A program made the translations under genes and the position numbers. Shown here in pieces: positions 3,806 through 54,290 of a stretch of 64,000 nt of DNA (its first letter is position 1; each line of letters starts with the position of its first letter). Source of the DNA: a virus (Duplodnaviria; Caudoviricetes). Location of the stretch: positions 1 through 64,000 of IMG/VR virus record IMGVR_UViG_3300010344_000850, one strand, 5' to 3'. Below the pieces are notes generated by a model that ran no database searches, was not told the origin of the DNA, and saw nothing but the letters and a program-made list of their open reading frames with translations.

Positions 3806-3982
3806 ATGAGTTCCAAAGGGCTAATCGAAATCACCGAGTATAAAGGTAATCCAATCATCAGTCTCAAGAGTTCTGAGGACGATAAGTTTCCATTTTCCTT
3901 CGGACTAACGAAAGCGAAGAAGATATTGGCTAACGTAAAAGCTATCAAGGACTTCGTTTCCTCCAACGAAGCTGAAGTGTAA
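3806..3982 (+). CDS. 58-aa protein missing from the ORF track, possibly PC4-like nucleic-acid binder
   Basis: SD AAGGAG; MSSKGLIEITEYKGNPIISLKSSEDDKFPFSFGLTKAKKILANVKAIKDFV...; beta-rich N-terminus plus C-terminal helix; fold assignment tentative. Confidence 0.65.
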   Translation: MSSKGLIEITEYKGNPIISLKSSEDDKFPFSFGLTKAKKILANVKAIKDFVSSNEAEV

Positions 3983-4069
3983 CTATGAATCCTAATCTTA
4001 TTCCAGCAATGATTTTTTTCATTATTGGAGTATTTCTTCTACTGAAAGAAATTTAAAAAAGGAGGAAAA

Positions 4070-4273
4070 ATGTGCGAAGGAAACTGTAAGTGCAAGAGAA
4101 TGAAAGACGAGGGACTGGAGACTCAGCAGAGGGAGACTCAACTCATCAATGAAGCTCTCGAACGCATTCAGTCTCTCCCTATCTATATCCATCAGTCGGG
4201 GGCAATCTATGTTCGTTCAGAGTTTGATAAACAGGTGTTGTTGGAGTTGATTCATGGAAGGAGGACGGCTTGA
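4070..4273 (+). CDS. hypothetical protein
   Basis: Strong SD AAGGAGG. Confidence 0.65.
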   Translation: MCEGNCKCKRMKDEGLETQQRETQLINEALERIQSLPIYIHQSGAIYVRSEFDKQVLLELIHGRRTA

Positions 4274-4804: not shown

Positions 4805-5377
4805 ATGGGAGTTTTAGTCAGAGGCAAAATGAAACGATACAAAACAAAAACCGAAGAACAAGTCACCATCGCTATCGACGGAAAAGTGATTAGGGGAATG
4901 GAGGAGGAGGCACATAAGGAGTGGGTTCCGAAGAAAACAATCGAACTCTACGAAGGCTTTAAGCCAAAAGTCAAAGAAACCATTCACAAAGACGGTTCTA
5001 TCTCTATCGAGTTAGTCGGCTCTTCCAAACTCACTCAACTCGACAAAGAGTCCATCGCTCGTATCATCACCAAGTCAGGAAAGATTCCCGATATGAACAA
5101 GCCTAGAGGGTATTGGGGCTTCAAGTATTTCAAGGGAAGGGGAGATGGCTCTGGATTTGAGAATATGCTTGAGCCTAAGCCCGAACCCGAAACCTTTAAG
5201 TTGCCTACATATACGAAGGGCGACACAATCTCCATTCGCGGGGTCGATTATATCATTCAAAGTAAAAGTTCCACAGATGTAAAACTAAAGAGTCAGAGTG
5301 GACTTAGGAGTAAACTTAAAGTCAAAGGATTGAATAAACTAATCAAGAGTGGAAAAGCGTACAAACTGATTAAGTAA
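4805..5377 (+). CDS. hypothetical basic protein
   Basis: 190-aa ORF with SD GAAAGGA. Confidence 0.75.
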   Translation: MGVLVRGKMKRYKTKTEEQVTIAIDGKVIRGMEEEAHKEWVPKKTIELYEGFKPKVKETIHKDGSISIELVGSSKLTQLDKESIARIITKSGKIPDMNKPRGYWGFKYFKGRGDGSGFENMLEPKPEPETFKLPTYTKGDTISIRGVDYIIQSKSSTDVKLKSQSGLRSKLKVKGLNKLIKSGKAYKLIK

Positions 5378-5390
5378 AAGGAGAAAGAAG

Positions 5391-6119
5391 ATGCTTATAA
5401 CAAACTATGTAGCCGAAGATGGAACAGAGATTGTAATAAATGAGTGGTATGACTTTAAAAAAGTTTGTAAGTATATAAGCGATAAGTGGGAAGTAGAGAT
5501 GACGGATGGAGATTTAGGTCTTACAATTGTGAAAGGGATTGTTTATCAAGAATCTCAAGTTCCTCGTCGCTTTTATCTTCTTCATAACAATCCGTCTAAA
5601 TCTGGAGGATATCCTAGGTTCGCTCCTGAGGGATTCATGAGAAAATATAATAAATCGTATTCGTGGATTTTAATGGATGAAGCCCTAAAAATCAAAGTGT
5701 TGGATTTTGGTACACCTCCTATGACAGAAACAGAAAAGTTTAAGAAAGAGGTGGAGACTATGATTAATGCTTCTCCCTCCGACCCTCGTTTATTCTTCCA
5801 TGAAATTGAGGACAAAAGAAATAGTCTCCTCTCGGCACTAGCCGATAGAATGTCAAAAGATTTACAGGCTTTTGAGAACCTGCTAATGACGAAGGATTTT
5901 GAAGAAGAACGAGGAGAGCCTTGGGTTCGAAATGGAGCGATAACGTGGAAATTCGGAAGGCTAGGGTGGGAGATGACAGCTACACCTCCTCAGTTACAGA
6001 AATTACAAGGATGGTTAAAAGATAAGAACTATAAAACAATGAAGGATATTATCAAAGAAACAGTGAAAGTATTACAATGGAGGCAAGAAAATGACAGAAT
6101 TAGAACGGAACATTTCTAA
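5391..6119 (+). CDS. hypothetical protein
   Basis: 242-aa ORF with SD AAGGAG. Confidence 0.75.
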   Translation: MLITNYVAEDGTEIVINEWYDFKKVCKYISDKWEVEMTDGDLGLTIVKGIVYQESQVPRRFYLLHNNPSKSGGYPRFAPEGFMRKYNKSYSWILMDEALKIKVLDFGTPPMTETEKFKKEVETMINASPSDPRLFFHEIEDKRNSLLSALADRMSKDLQAFENLLMTKDFEEERGEPWVRNGAITWKFGRLGWEMTATPPQLQKLQGWLKDKNYKTMKDIIKETVKVLQWRQENDRIRTEHF

Positions 6120-6355: not shown

Positions 6356-7684
6356 ATGCCCGAAGAGACACAAGATGTTCAATTAGTAGAGTGTCATTGT
6401 TGTGGAATAGACGTGAGAGAGGAAAGTGCGAAAGCGGTTGAAGGGGAATATGTTTGTGAACTCTGCTACCCGATTAAAACGGTAGAGTGCTTTGAGTGTA
6501 GTGAGCGTGTTCTAATTATTAATACTGAAAGAATAGCTAATGGGAAAAGAGTCTGCAAAGACTGTATTGACGAAAACTATACTCTCTGTAGACACTGCGA
6601 GGAATACTATCACAATGACGAGATTCTCTATGTGGAGAGTTGCGATGTTAGTGTTTGCGATAACTGTTACGGAGACAGATACGGAACTTGTGAGTGTGGT
6701 TATCAGGACGACCAAAGCAATTTAGTTTATTTTGACGGAAGGTATTATTGCGACAGATGTAGGAGTGAGTATTTAGTGATATGCTATCACTGTAATGAAT
6801 ATGAGAATGCAGAGGATTGCTACATGGATGAACATTCGGGGAATTATTATTGCCGTAGATGTTACGATAGGGGCTATCATCAATCCAATGAGTCTCTACA
6901 CGATTATAATTACCAGCCCGACCTAAAGTTCCATCACCATCCTCTTGAGAACGACAGAAAGAGTAATAAACTATACATGGGTTTTGAATTGGAAGTAGAA
7001 GTCGAAACCCGAACTCAGTCCATCGACGACATTGTTAAATTAGTAGAAGACCACATGAAATCAGAAGGTAAAGAAAAGAAACTTTACTTCAAACGGGATG
7101 GTTCCCTGACCAACGGATTTGAAATTGTTTCTCATCCTATGACCTTACGATGGATTAAGAAGGAGTTGAAACTGAATAAGGTTTTGGATATCCTAAGAAA
7201 TAAGAAGGTATCTAGCTATGAGAAAGGTACTTGTGGTTTTCATGTCCACCTCGCTAAGAACTTCTTTGAGGGTACGGAGGTGGATAAATTACGATTATTC
7301 ATCAACAATAACTATCAAGCCATATATGATTTCTCTAAACGAAAGACTACAGGAGGCCATTACTTCAAAAAAGAGGAATATGATTTAAATGCTTTCAAGA
7401 GATGTTTCAATCAAGAAGGAAGGTATTGGGCTTATAACCTGAATACTCATAAGGAAACAGTCGAGATACGCATCTTCCGAGGAACTCTATCATATAAGAG
7501 ACTTATAGCTTCTATGGAATTATGCGACGCTATGGCTCATTATATTAAGGGAATCTCCTTCATGAAAGCAGGGAATCCTAAGGACTCGTGGAAGGATTTC
7601 TTAGCTTGGTGTAAGAGGGAGAATAGGTATCACAAGTTTCTTATGCACATTCAATATCAACCATCAAAACAAACAACAGTTTAA
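6356..7684 (+). CDS. putative amidoligase (COOH-NH2 ligase) with N-terminal tandem CxxC zinc-ribbon repeats
   Basis: GFELEVE, KRDGSL..GFEIVSHP, CGFHVH, TVEIRIFRGT motifs; about ten CxxC/CxC motifs in the first 175 aa. Confidence 0.85.
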   Translation: MPEETQDVQLVECHCCGIDVREESAKAVEGEYVCELCYPIKTVECFECSERVLIINTERIANGKRVCKDCIDENYTLCRHCEEYYHNDEILYVESCDVSVCDNCYGDRYGTCECGYQDDQSNLVYFDGRYYCDRCRSEYLVICYHCNEYENAEDCYMDEHSGNYYCRRCYDRGYHQSNESLHDYNYQPDLKFHHHPLENDRKSNKLYMGFELEVEVETRTQSIDDIVKLVEDHMKSEGKEKKLYFKRDGSLTNGFEIVSHPMTLRWIKKELKLNKVLDILRNKKVSSYEKGTCGFHVHLAKNFFEGTEVDKLRLFINNNYQAIYDFSKRKTTGGHYFKKEEYDLNAFKRCFNQEGRYWAYNLNTHKETVEIRIFRGTLSYKRLIASMELCDAMAHYIKGISFMKAGNPKDSWKDFLAWCKRENRYHKFLMHIQYQPSKQTTV

Positions 7685-17569: not shown

Positions 17570-18283
17570 ATGAAAATTGATAAATCAGTATTTCAGAGTT
17601 TTTTAGAAGCCATTTTACTTAAAGGAGAACATCAGAATAAAGAGTGTATCTTATCAGTCAATAAAGAAGGTTTAGGAGCTATTCTTTTGTCGGCTGACGG
17701 AACTACGGCTATTAAAGCTTCTTTAAATGTTAGTCTTGATAAGGGAAGTGAGGAGTGGGGTATTGATAATCTTCCTCTTCTTGTAGAAGCCGTTAAGACT
17801 TTTAAAGAAGGAGAGCTTTCCGTAACTAAAAACAAGAATAAACTTGCGGTATCACAAGGAAAACAAAAGGCTACTTTAATTCTTAGAGATATTGAATATA
17901 TTAAAAACGGAATTGAAGAAGCTAAACTGAATACCCTCAAGACTAAGGAGGCTGTTGGATTTGACTTAGAGTTGCCTCTGATTAAGGAGATTTCTTCTTT
18001 CCTTAACTCTTTTAAGAGTAAGGCTTTACGTATGGAGGGAGAGGGGAGTGAATTCAATATCTATATCGAAAGTAATGAGAATTCATTTGAAAAAAGCTAC
18101 GATATAGGAGAGGGAATTGTGCTACCGAAATTCGTTGTATTAGTAGGTTCTCCTTTTATCGATATTATTAATTCTGTTAAATCTAAAATCAATATTAAAG
18201 CTACTACAGGAAAAGCGTTAGAATGTACGGTTTCTAATGATAATATGACTGTAGAATATTTTGTAGCTACTATGAGGGATTAA
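17570..18283 (+). CDS. DNA sliding clamp (gp45/PCNA-like)
   Basis: 237-aa two-domain alpha/beta pattern ending VEYFVA; immediately upstream of the clamp loader. Confidence 0.7.
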   Translation: MKIDKSVFQSFLEAILLKGEHQNKECILSVNKEGLGAILLSADGTTAIKASLNVSLDKGSEEWGIDNLPLLVEAVKTFKEGELSVTKNKNKLAVSQGKQKATLILRDIEYIKNGIEEAKLNTLKTKEAVGFDLELPLIKEISSFLNSFKSKALRMEGEGSEFNIYIESNENSFEKSYDIGEGIVLPKFVVLVGSPFIDIINSVKSKINIKATTGKALECTVSNDNMTVEYFVATMRD

Positions 18284-18322: not shown

Positions 18323-19225
18323 ATGAACGAAATTTTTACAGAGAAATACAGGCCAAAGAAGCTAGAAGATTTAGCTTTAAACGCTTCAGTTTTTGATACA
18401 ATTAAGTCTTTAATCGCTTCGCCTTCTAATATTCAATCTCTTGTTTTTTATTCGTCACAACCAGGAACTGGTAAGACCTCAACGGCTAGGGTAATAGCTA
18501 AGGAATTAGGGGCTGATTTACTTGAGATGAATGCTTCGATGGACAGAGGAATTGATTTTGTTAGAGAAAGAATTAATCAGTTCGCTAGGTCTTTATCCTC
18601 TAAAGAAGGTATTAAAAGACTTGTTTTTATGGACGAAGCGGATGGAATTTCCCGTCCTGCTCAAGATAGCTTACGAAATCTTATGGAGACATGCTCAAGT
18701 AATTGCTTCTTTATCTTGAGTTGTAATGATATATCTAAAATCATTGAGCCGTTGCAATCACGATGTACTATTCTTAATTTTGAGAATCCTGATAGAATGA
18801 AGGTGATTTCTTATGTAGATTCTATCTCCTACAAAGAAAAAATAAATATATCAGACGTAGATTTAAACAACCTTGTTGAATTATATTATCCTGATATCAG
18901 AAGAATGGTTCTAGCTTTACAGAACTACGCTTTAGATAATACATCTTTTATTGATAATACTTCTGAATTTAATAATTTTCTTCTTTTAATGAAAACTAAA
19001 GATATTAATAAAATACAAGAAATAGTTTACGAAAAATCAATTAATCTATCCGACCTAAACAGATATATCTTTAGGAAGCTCTTTGAAAACGCCAGTAAAT
19101 ATACCCCTCAAAAACTATCAAAAATAGCTGAAAAACTAGCTGACTCTGAGAAGTATATGAATAACGGGTGCAATAAAGAAATAGTTTTTTTAAGTAATAT
19201 TTTAGCTATTTTAGCTGAAAACTAA
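18323..19225 (+). CDS. clamp loader AAA+ subunit (RFC-small / gp44-like)
   Basis: EKYRPK.L, PGTGKT, LEMNAS.DRGID.VR, DEAD, AQ.SLR..ME, FILSCN, PLQSRC. Confidence 0.92.
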   Translation: MNEIFTEKYRPKKLEDLALNASVFDTIKSLIASPSNIQSLVFYSSQPGTGKTSTARVIAKELGADLLEMNASMDRGIDFVRERINQFARSLSSKEGIKRLVFMDEADGISRPAQDSLRNLMETCSSNCFFILSCNDISKIIEPLQSRCTILNFENPDRMKVISYVDSISYKEKINISDVDLNNLVELYYPDIRRMVLALQNYALDNTSFIDNTSEFNNFLLLMKTKDINKIQEIVYEKSINLSDLNRYIFRKLFENASKYTPQKLSKIAEKLADSEKYMNNGCNKEIVFLSNILAILAEN

Positions 19226-19410
19226 AACAGCCCTTTTAAGCCCTAGAATCGCTTATCTTTTTTCGGGAAGGGTAGGAGTAAGGGGTCATTGAAACTAAGC
19301 GTTTTTAGGTCATCTGCTATAGGCAAAAGGGTCAAAAACAGCCCTTTTTGAGGGTATTTTAAGATTTGCTCAAGATTTAAAACCCCTGTTTTCGGGGATA
19401 TTAAAAAAGA
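19226..19410. repeat. phased A/T-tract element with core GGGTAGGAGTAAGGGG, copy A
   Basis: Collinear similarity to 54110-54290; 16-bp core at 19270-19285. Confidence 0.7.
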
Positions 19411-19449
19411 GCCTATTTTACCCTACATTAAAAAGATTTAATAAAATAA

Positions 19450-19488
19450 GGGGTTGACTTTTTCGGGTTTTTGTATATTAAGAATTGT
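19450..19488 (+). promoter_or_regulatory. promoter motif GGGGTTGACTTTT-N-TATTAAGAATTGT, copy 1
   Basis: TTGACT, 16 bp, TATTAAGAATTGT; same motif and spacing at 35341-35379. Confidence 0.65.
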
Positions 19489-19489
19489 G

Positions 19490-19770
19490 TAAAGACATTT
19501 TTCCGTTTATTTCGGGGAAATGTCAGACAAATAGAAATCCTAGTATCTACTCGGTAAAGATAGACCTGGGCGAGTGAAAGACCTTCGTAAAAATCTGCGA
19601 AAACAGGATATACTGTGATAAGGAGTTTCTCCTTGTAATATCCCCCAGAACCCTAGATGGGACACCGTTCTATTCTCGAAAGAGAGGGGAGAGCGAAGGA
19701 AATGAAAAGAGATTTCGATTGAACAAGTTTTCTCCCAAGGGGGAGAATCTGCTCTCAGGAAACCTGTGAT
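19490..19770 (+). ncRNA. candidate highly structured non-coding RNA upstream of an HNH gene
   Basis: GC-richer ORF-free stretch with many nested stems containing G-U pairs and a GAAA tetraloop, starting directly after the promoter. Confidence 0.55.
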
Positions 19771-19799
19771 AGTTTAAAAGCTTAAAGGATTTAATATTA

Positions 19800-20270
19800 A
19801 TGATTAAATATAGAAAAAAGAATCAAGCTTCTTTTAGTCCTTGCAAGGTTTATTCCTTAAATAAACCTGAACAAAGTGTTATTTTAAAAAACGAGAATGA
19901 GGCTAGACAGGCTAGCTATTCTTTTTACAACAAAGAATATCCTGTTATAAGCGAAGACATTAAAGACTCTACTTATAAAGATTATTTAAAATCCGATAGG
20001 TGGAAAAAAATCAGAAAGAAACATTTTTCTAAGGATTTTAATAGAAAGTGTTTTATATGTAATAAAACAGATGTTATTTTAAATATTCATCATAATACTT
20101 ATAAGAGACTAGGTAGAGAACTATCTTATGATTTAATATCTTTATGTGAAGATTGTCATAACTTATGTCATCTTACTCTTAAGAATAAATCTAAAGAATA
20201 TACTCTAAAAAATGTAGCTAGAAGGCTTCGTAGAAAACATAGAAATTTTTTGAAAACAAAAGGAGATTAA
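19800..20270 (+). CDS. small HNH endonuclease
   Basis: Y.DYL.S.RW..IR...CFIC...LNIHH.TY.RLG.E...DL..LCEDCH..CH. Confidence 0.85.
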   Translation: MIKYRKKNQASFSPCKVYSLNKPEQSVILKNENEARQASYSFYNKEYPVISEDIKDSTYKDYLKSDRWKKIRKKHFSKDFNRKCFICNKTDVILNIHHNTYKRLGRELSYDLISLCEDCHNLCHLTLKNKSKEYTLKNVARRLRRKHRNFLKTKGD

Positions 20271-20272
20271 AG

Positions 20273-20494
20273 ATGAACGACAGACAACGTTACGAACTAT
20301 TGCAAAAGTTTCTTAATGATTCTTCAATAGCTAAAGGGGGTAATATTCAGGTTGATATTACAGAACATCATACTTCTATGACTCCTAGAAATCCTTTAAA
20401 AAGTGGAATGAAATTTGAGGATATTAAATATTTAGATGAATTAAGAACAGGAGGAGAAGCTTTACTTTATTACTTACCAGAAGAAAAAGATTGA
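20273..20494 (+). CDS. hypothetical protein
   Basis: SD AAGGAG. Confidence 0.55.
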   Translation: MNDRQRYELLQKFLNDSSIAKGGNIQVDITEHHTSMTPRNPLKSGMKFEDIKYLDELRTGGEALLYYLPEEKD

Positions 20495-20519
20495 CAAATC
20501 AAAGAAAGCGAGATAGAAT
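20491..20519 (+). promoter_or_regulatory. sigma70 promoter, probably giving a leaderless mRNA
   Basis: TTGACA, 17 bp, TAGAAT; ATGs at 20525/20528 lie at the expected +1. Confidence 0.65.
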
Positions 20520-20524
20520 AACTC

Positions 20525-20926
20525 ATGATGAATTCTCCGTTTCACTTACTTAAAAAATTATACGAGAAACAAGATATTAGTTTTGAAGAGATTAAAGATT
20601 TAGAAATTAAAGATTGCATCACGATGATTACGTTCTTATCGAGGGACAATTCAATTCTTGATATTCTTAAAAGAGCCTTAGGATATATATTCACCATAGA
20701 CCCGAAATATTTTTTCATATATCTCTACTGCACTATTCCTAAAAGAAATAAAGCTCCTTATTTAAAAGTATCTAAAAAAAAGAAGATTGAAGAAGATGTT
20801 TTGATTACTAAAATGAAGAAGATTTATAAGTGGGGAGGAAGAGAGACGGAGGAACAAAAACAAGTTCTTACTAAGTTAATTAACCTAGACCGTAAATTCT
20901 TTGAAGAAAAATGGGGAATGAAATGA
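20525..20926 (+). CDS. clamp loader small subunit (T4 gp62-like)
   Basis: SPF start, FLS.D, YLY..IPKR.K..YLK, KIYKW pattern; size and position fit gp62. Confidence 0.55.
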   Translation: MMNSPFHLLKKLYEKQDISFEEIKDLEIKDCITMITFLSRDNSILDILKRALGYIFTIDPKYFFIYLYCTIPKRNKAPYLKVSKKKKIEEDVLITKMKKIYKWGGRETEEQKQVLTKLINLDRKFFEEKWGMK

Positions 20927-21047
20927 AAAAAAGTAAAGTACAGCCTCAGGATAATTACTGTGCGATGGAACTGTCGGACTTCATTAAAGCTCTTAAAAAA
21001 TATAATAAAGAATTAGAAAAGAAAGATCAAAAAAGGAGTAAAAAAAC

Positions 21048-53886: not shown

Positions 53887-54153
53887 ATGTGGCACTATAG
53901 AATATGTAAAAGAAAAGATAAACAAGGAAATATATATTTCAACGTTGTTGAATTTTACAAAAATGTTCCTACAGGAAAAGGAAATAAAAAAACAAATCTT
54001 TAGTCTCAAGAACCAGAAGCTCCTTTCGGAGAGACTAAAAAAGAACTAATAGAGTGTCTAAAAATGATGTTGAAAGATTGTGAACATTACTCTGTTTTAG
54101 ATGAAACTAAACAGCGAAAAAAGGGTCAAAAACGAGCTAAAAAGCTTCGGTAG
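53887..54153 (+). pseudogene. conserved small phage gene interrupted by a TAG at 54001
   Basis: MWHYRICK...VEFY...NL*SQEPEAPFGET..EL.ECL.MML.D; coding pattern continues in frame past the stop. Confidence 0.55.
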
Positions 54154-54290
54154 GGGTAGGAGTAAGGGGGTACTCAAAACTACGCTAAAACACCCCTATT
54201 TTATTCGTGATTCGTCCTAAAAACCCCCCTTTTTAGGGGTATTTTTCGTTTTGAAGCAAATCCGAAATACCCCTTTTTAAGGATATTGAG
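54110..54290. repeat. phased A/T-tract element with core GGGTAGGAGTAAGGGG, copy B
   Basis: Core at 54154-54169; downstream blocks collinear with copy A. Confidence 0.7.

Follow-up and report, generated by a model that had tools for sequence, protein, structure and literature searches.

The window analysed here covers positions 1-64,000 of an IMG/VR record of an uncultured phage, which is 101.7 kb long and estimated to be 93% complete. All genes around the locus of interest are located on the + strand. The gene for the sliding clamp (17570-18283) is followed by the gene for a gp44-type clamp-loader large subunit (18323-19225), which was assigned to phrog_168 with an E value of 8e-63 and contains AAA and Rep_fac_C domains. 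Downstream of it there is a gene-free gap of 574 nt (19226-19799), in which no + strand ORF of at least 40 aa was found, and then a gene encoding an HNH endonuclease of 156 aa (19800-20270). The subsequent ORF of 73 aa (20273-20494) belongs to no known family; Pfam and PHROG gave no match, and the sole similarity was one of 8 residues with an ORF of L013, the single related phage that was found.

The next ORF encodes a protein of 133 aa (20525-20926), which is probably the gp62-type small clamp-loader subunit. It had no Pfam or PHROG match of its own, and its predicted structure reached a pLDDT of 56, below the quality needed for a fold search. The assignment is suggested by its atlas features, since 25 of the 30 matches were in clusters carrying PF16790 (score 0.93), and by a structure TM score of 0.52 to a cluster named clamp loader small subunit; both serve as a lead only. 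An orthologue is present in L013 at positions 6400-6795 (E 3e-13), and a protein with 89% identity to the gp62-like ORF was found on a 22-kb contig. The original prediction, that the RNA and the HNH gene are inserted between the two clamp-loader genes, is therefore probably right. The promoter that had been claimed at 20491, directly upstream of the small clamp-loader gene, was confirmed by a consensus scan (TTGACA-17-TAGAAT, 20491-20519, + strand), matching 11 of 12 consensus positions.

The 5′ part of the gap differs from the remainder. It contains a repeated intergenic DNA element (copy A, 19226-19420), which lies outside the RNA, aligns with a second copy at 54110-54290 and shares with it the common core TTCGG.A.GGGTAGGAGTAAGGGG. 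Folded as RNA, the upstream 225 nt of the gap were no better than their shuffles (z -0.46). Words of the type TTTTCGGG are concentrated here as well, with three of the five instances in the window located within 19260-19467 and near-copies at 19344 and 19506. The element is followed by a putative sigma-70-like promoter, TTGACT-16-TATTAA (19454-19481, + strand). Its sequence is present as originally described, but the consensus promoter scan made no call at 19454, because the -10 hexamer ends in A. The transcript would start near 19488, and the ends given for it are putative. A 13-nt direct repeat flanks the promoter and the RNA (19431-19443 and 19784-19796), which by estimate is at chance level.

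The RNA stretch itself (19488-19770) has a GC content of 42%, whereas the window as a whole has 33.7% and the HNH gene 25.7%, in agreement with its initial description as an ORF-free, GC-enriched sequence. The 315 nt from position 19485 fold with -92.3 kcal/mol, equivalent to a z score of -3.46 on the + strand, and none of 100 dinucleotide-shuffled controls folded as well. With a z score of -1.73 for the minus strand, the + strand is favoured as the RNA, as had been proposed. The bulk of the fold signal comes from the 5′ half (19488-19643, z -3.17), while the signal of the 3′ half, folded alone, is weak and no better than shuffles (z -1.16). The stems listed in the original prediction all formed when each segment was folded alone, but AGAAC/GTTCT (19647-19671) was not the minimum free energy structure of its fragment.

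In 5′ to 3′ direction, the + strand RNA begins with the 12-bp hairpin H1 (19494-19524, -14.2 kcal/mol alone). The apex of H1 carries a degenerate copy of the 5′ strand of the RNA family EGFOA, CCGUUUAU (19503-19510), which Rfam aligns to model positions 9-27. Then follow a predicted anti-Shine-Dalgarno segment (19530-19541) and a P4-type hairpin (19548-19576) with the EGFOA hallmark loop GGUAAAGAUAGACCUGGGC (19553-19571). The extended hairpin at 19606-19643 (GGAUAU/AUAUCC with the inner stem AUAAGGAG/CUCCUUGU, -10.5 kcal/mol alone) is without counterpart in the Rfam EGFOA model. The motifs of the EGFOA 5′ strand occupy 19644-19673, with CCCAG at 19644-19648, a short variable hairpin and CCGUUCUAU at 19665-19673. 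They are followed by the P1 hairpin UCUC-GAAA-GAGA (19674-19685), which is aligned to P1 of the model with its GAAA loop, and by a P2-like helix formed by 19689-19695 and 19750-19756 (19689-19756, -21.2 kcal/mol alone). Enclosed by this helix are two hairpins that lack the hallmark loop (19699-19716 and 19730-19747); in the isolated fold of 19689-19756 there was also a third, weak hairpin of 4 bp at 19717-19729.

The search against Rfam, which had been suggested as a check, led to EGFOA (RF02955) as the RNA family. In a permissive scan, two adjacent + strand matches were obtained, one at 19485-19586 with 30.2 bits (whole-genome E 5.7e-5) and one at 19647-19719 with 23.7 bits (E 0.0016), both of which are below the Rfam gathering cut-off for this family of 37.7 bits. 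The next-best EGFOA match in the entire 101.7 kb scored 11.3 bits. A search for tRNA and tmRNA yielded none. The score of the first match comes mostly from the hallmark loop. The loop GUAAAGNUAGACCUgGG is present at 19554-19570, closed by the 5 bp 19548-19552/19572-19576, and its 13-base core GUAAAGNUAGACC is exact in the window and identical in all nine canonical phage members discussed below.

EGFOA has been described as a family of putative small RNAs from gene-free regions of unusual size, and two members solved by cryo-EM were reported to be homo-oligomers (bioRxiv 10.64898/2026.07.01.735769). The RNA studied here shares with this family the core with CUGGG after it in a 5-bp hairpin, the strand containing CCCAG and CCGUNCUAN, P1 with its GAAA cap, a P2 helix around hairpins in the layout of P2, P3 and P4 of the model, the position in a long gene-free phage gap and probably its own promoter. 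It differs in the sub-threshold scores and in the order of its parts. The canonical order is 5′ strand, P1, then P2 with P3 and the loop-bearing P4 inside. In the window, the strand CCcAG...CCGUCcUAG and the P1 after it are present, but downstream of the loop, the hairpin of which is located about 95 nt upstream of the scaffold rather than inside it, and the scaffold hairpin in the P4 position has a loop of 4 nt. Within the first match, the P2 and P3 pairs of the covariance model are largely mismatched and P1 is deleted. Moreover, there are extra hairpins (H1 and 19606-19643), yielding a length of about 280 nt compared to a model of 108 positions. The family resemblance is thus evident, but the RNA scores below the cut-off and has its parts in another order than the canonical one, and it is therefore called a rearranged variant and not filed as a plain EGFOA member.

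For comparison, motif scans of IMG/VR provided nine canonical EGFOA RNAs in phage contigs with scores of 37-70 bits. Since a MAFFT alignment of the phage EGFOA cores mixed two subgroups, the invariant loop was used as a screen instead of a covariance model. All nine canonical RNAs are located in ORF-free gaps of 467-1404 nt (for L141 at least 321 nt, limited by the contig end), each on the same strand as the closest ORF downstream of it. The neighbouring genes are mutually unrelated and include a terminase, DnaE, ParA, a GIY-YIG protein, an RHH protein and unknowns. In L004, L006 and L007, the conserved region reaches well past the 108-position model; these flanks are missing from the window, where a gene follows the RNA within about 30 nt. 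At the one canonical locus checked for a promoter (L006), the conserved RNA region begins after TTGACA-17-TAGTAT. The strand expected to pair with the loop CUGGG varies in its place among the canonical members, being located before CCGU in some and right after P1 in others, and L135 shows a double change, with CCUG and CAGG in place of CCAG and CUGG. The EGFOA family thus has some modular plasticity.

The protein encoded next to the RNA was confirmed as a small HNH protein of 156 aa, with no RuvC or other domain. It was matched to PHROG HNH families with E values of 4e-9 to 9e-9, and to Pfam HNH only at E 0.027. Its conserved part comprises residues 56-125, with the signature Y..YL.S..W followed by CxxC...HHN...CxxCH; the conserved residues are C84, C87, H97, H98, C116, H120 and H124, and CxxC...HH-N...CxxCH was invariant among five relatives. 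The modelled core consists of an HNH beta-hairpin plus helix (pLDDT 70-83). The first 55 residues are without relatives and poorly modelled. Foldseek searches with this model yielded only weak, generic HNH rows, the best at E 0.09 to the HNH domains of Cas5-HNH Cascade. The gene is single copy in the phage genome, and its best homologues, which have a scattered distribution, share 31-42% identity within the aligned part, which is mostly the core. An identical HNH is also encoded on three other contigs. The protein has a generic zinc-binding HNH core and is probably a free-standing homing endonuclease.

Small free-standing homing endonuclease genes of the seg and mob type are wedged between conserved replication genes in T4-like phages. 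The gene in the window resembles these in its low GC content, in its sporadic distribution, in the occupation of this slot by another endonuclease in a related phage and possibly in translational masking, and it differs in that its N-terminal 55 residues have no relatives and neither a cleavage site nor an endonuclease-less allele is known. The related phage is L013, with a clamp loader that is 48% identical. Between its orthologous clamp-loader genes it carries an EndoVII-type HNH gene, a gap of 270 nt and three small ORFs, with the gp62-like orthologue coming next. The gp44-like/gp62-like junction is hence an insertion hotspot for mobile endonuclease genes, and the HNH gene of the window has lodged in this variable slot. 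Such a pattern is typical of free-standing homing endonucleases and not of a module of RNA and protein.

The RNA and the HNH gene had initially been read together, as a nuclease working as a ribonucleoprotein, possibly RNA-guided, with the layout of HEARO/omegaRNA-IscB elements. We therefore considered the distribution of this pairing from both sides. In tblastn searches, none of the nine canonical EGFOA loci encoded a relative of the window HNH. Conversely, the EGFOA loop, with up to one mismatch allowed, was absent from 85 IMG/VR loci with HNH relatives (397 kb), in a screen that recovered all positive controls. A search against Rfam on 19 of these loci gave no EGFOA match; what it did find was a tRNA, a group I intron near the threshold and a weak match to Phe-leader. 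The gap upstream of the HNH relatives has a median of 39 nt and exceeds 250 nt in only 3 of 73 measurable loci. The RNA-HNH pairing is not conserved. As this holds from either side, an RNA-guided nuclease is unsupported.

Taken together, we regard it as likely that the RNA at 19488-19770 is a divergent, rearranged relative of EGFOA and that the HNH gene is its incidental neighbour, a free-standing homing endonuclease in a hotspot.

Compatible with this explanation, the RNA may act chiefly in cis, as a leader of the HNH mRNA that sets the timing and the amount of the endonuclease. The original prediction had mentioned a regulatory RNA controlling nuclease expression as its weaker alternative and had noted no obvious Shine-Dalgarno sequence; nevertheless, AAGGA can be read at 19785-19789 (+ strand), 10 nt before the ATG of the HNH gene. 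The partition function of 19488-19830 gives pairing probabilities of 0.83-0.98 between 19535-19541 and 19786-19792, the latter including the Shine-Dalgarno sequence, and of 0.57-0.66 between 19530-19533 and 19795-19798. Such a long-range helix would mask the ribosome-binding site and keep translation of the endonuclease low. Mean pairing of the Shine-Dalgarno sequence was 0.977 in the full transcript versus 0.64 ± 0.17 in 150 dinucleotide shuffles, 5 of which reached 0.95, corresponding to a p value of about 0.03. The HNH gene begins about 30 nt past the last stem, and in the stretch separating the RNA from the ATG of this gene, neither reading of the sequence nor the promoter scan revealed a promoter or a terminator. 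Lacking a promoter of its own after the RNA, the HNH gene is probably read from the transcript of the RNA or by read-through from upstream.

In phage T4, a comparable restraint acts on some endonucleases, both intron-encoded and free-standing ones. The evidence for translation of the HNH gene being held down on the transcript of the RNA is suggestive but marginal. The predicted masking is in favour, with a pairing of 0.98 in the full transcript versus 0.46 in a short leader and only the mentioned 5 of 150 shuffled leaders masking equally, whereas the helix is short, AU-rich, spans 250 nt, has no comparative support and differs from shuffles at a marginal level. Furthermore, canonical EGFOA RNAs are not leaders. 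In L004 and L006, the two loci examined from end to end, another 200-300 nt or so without coding capacity come after the core, and the next gene has a new TTGACA promoter in front of it; the neighbours across the nine canonical loci are unrelated. Control of nuclease expression through predicted Shine-Dalgarno masking is therefore possible, and we give the view of the RNA as chiefly a cis-acting leader tentative standing, well short of being likely.

The interpretation as a rearranged EGFOA relative raises the question of how the parts of the RNA could fit together. Every recognizable part of EGFOA is there, divided between two neighbouring, half-degenerate modules. Module 1 (19488-19586) retains hairpin P4 and its hallmark loop. 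Module 2 (19644-19756) provides the CCCAG...CCGUNCUAN strand, the GAAA-capped P1 and a P2 helix with hairpins inside, but has lost the loop. The upstream loop could then pair with the downstream strand through CUGGG/CCCAG and AUAGAC/GUU-CUAU, and this pairing would rebuild the EGFOA double pseudoknot in permuted order. The window is the only sequence with an A at the variable loop position and also the only one in which CCGUNCUAN ends in U instead of G, so that the proposed pair is kept. Nevertheless, the same loop and strand positions have G opposite G in four of the nine canonical members, which weakens the support from a compensatory pair.

Duplex folding of the loop versus the rest of the transcript gave several partners of similar energy and did not single out the module 2 strand. 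The pattern for the permuted order (the loop, 83-113 nt and CCGTNCTA) had two matches in IMG/VR, both by chance in coding regions. The exact 19-mer of the loop matched seven times in metagenome contigs, again all chance matches inside coding regions, and a looser loop pattern matched 92 times in genome contigs. In 80 loci examined for the latter, none had the 5′ strand upstream, and these matches thus look like chance. With blastn, the locus had no match among GenBank phages, and scans of IMG/VR with the clamp-loader and gp62-like proteins led only to one distant phage, L013. With neither a second example of the order nor a close relative retrieved, there is no covariation for any helix of this RNA or for the permuted pseudoknots, and we infer the latter.

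On a stronger version, the RNA would be a functional, naturally permuted or split EGFOA, in which an upstream hairpin offers the hallmark loop to a downstream scaffold without a loop of its own. It would rebuild, within one molecule, contacts of the kind by which canonical EGFOA RNAs fold and oligomerize, and it would at the same time close on the ribosome-binding site of the HNH gene. We consider this combination rather improbable. Another reading is that of a decaying remnant, namely two broken EGFOA copies that arose by duplication, eroded and are non-functional. For such decay speaks that neither module is complete, that both are below the cut-off and that shuffled controls fold as well as the 3′ module. 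Against it, the 13-nt loop core and the motifs of P1 and the 5′ strand are intact, the parts missing from one module are exactly complementary to those missing from the other, the overall fold has a z score of -3.46 and the GC enrichment has been kept in an AT-rich phage. A decaying remnant is hence unlikely.

The gap could also serve mainly as DNA, for instance as a replication origin or an array of regulator-binding sites, with the transcript acting as a primer or forming an R-loop. The clustered TTTTCGGG-type words, the second copy of the upstream element and the position among clamp, clamp-loader and other replication genes would fit such control. However, these repeats are upstream of the RNA and outside the RNA part, while the latter matches an RNA covariance model and folds in a strand-specific manner. 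In addition, the cumulative GC skew climbs smoothly across the region without a turning point. These observations make an explanation at the DNA level very improbable.

A ribonucleoprotein of RNA and HNH, possibly RNA-guided and analogous to HEARO/omegaRNA-IscB, is hardly credible and has been largely refuted by the distribution, since for it speak only adjacency and the common strand of a structured RNA and a gene with an HNH domain, plus the generic similarity to the Cascade HNH core, whereas EGFOA RNAs occur beside unrelated genes and never beside the window HNH; HEARO, other nuclease-associated RNAs, introns, GOLLD and ROOL gave no match at E ≤10 in Rfam searches of 18800-21000, and a scan of the whole window at gathering level likewise lacked HEARO; neither repeats nor a variable segment resembling a guide were observed; and the protein, with its unconserved and poorly modelled N-terminus, has neither RuvC nor bridge-helix and is about one third the size of IscB, a nuclease of about 400-500 aa defined by split RuvC plus HNH, and neither the relatives of the RNA nor those of the HNH keep this gene order.

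These results remove a tempting candidate for a miniature RNA-guided HNH nuclease as unsupported and identify the gp44/gp62 junction of this phage group as a landing site for mobile endonuclease genes. For EGFOA, an orphan class of RNAs, oligomeric structures have been solved but no function is known. From a compact variant in a phage, with reordered parts, one would learn which contacts are essential, and it would provide a natural test of the proposed pseudoknots between loop and strand. If the permuted fold and its closing on the ribosome-binding site were true, RNA folding would be coupled to translation of the endonuclease.

At the canonical phage EGFOA loci of contigs L004 (10420-10990, minus strand), L007 (1440-2010, minus strand) and L006 (3370-3900, plus strand), the common conserved sequence reaches far past the 108-position Rfam model. 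Upstream it comprises a CCCTC...GAGGG hairpin and the sequence GCAGGTATRGC, and downstream ACGAAACAAACGAYCGACG together with a long GCCCCT.../...GGGGGC stem; the actual RNA at these three loci is probably ~450 nt long. Immediately 3′ of the L006 locus lies a GIY-YIG (T5orf172/MUG113) gene (3900-4253), a second instance of an endonuclease-like gene adjoining a gene-free gap.

Comparison of these three RNAs with that of a fourth phage contig, L135 (7790-7901), revealed a double change involving the EGFOA hallmark loop and the strand immediately 3′ of the GAAA-capped hairpin P1. Because this change is compensatory, with CCUG pairing with CAGG in L135 versus CCAG with CUGG in L004, L007 and L006, it supports a putative pseudoknot whose 5′ partner would be placed differently than in other EGFOA subgroups.

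In the window, a terminator-like hairpin followed by a T-run is located at 19901-19917, ~100 nt into the HNH ORF, and transcripts from the RNA promoter could be cut short there; the number of terminator-like hairpins in the scan, this one included, was at chance level. The promoter-plus-RNA unit is flanked by a 13-nt direct repeat (19431-19443 and 19784-19796; 12/13 identical), with an estimated ~0.4 such pairs at this identity expected by chance in the surrounding AT-rich stretch. At the locus encoding a distant relative of the HNH protein (L009), a group I intron match near threshold (3811-3984; 49.1 bits, cut-off 50) lies ~2 kb away from that relative.

An intergenic element of ~180 bp occurs in two copies in the window (19226-19420 and 54110-54290), which have TTCGG.A.GGGTAGGAGTAAGGGG and AAAAAC..CCCTTTTT..GGGTATTTT in common. 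Its RNA folding was no better than chance. The 64-kb window contains five TTTTCGGG words, three of them grouped at 19260-19467. The element is possibly a regulator-binding or origin-like array.

In the related phage L013, an EndoVII-type HNH gene (within 4816-5620) begins where the gp44-like gene ends, or overlaps with its end; the HNH gene is followed by a 270-nt gene-free stretch that had no match in Rfam and gave a modest fold signal at 5345-5480 (z -1.99). The same clamp-loader slot is held by an occupant different from that of the window.
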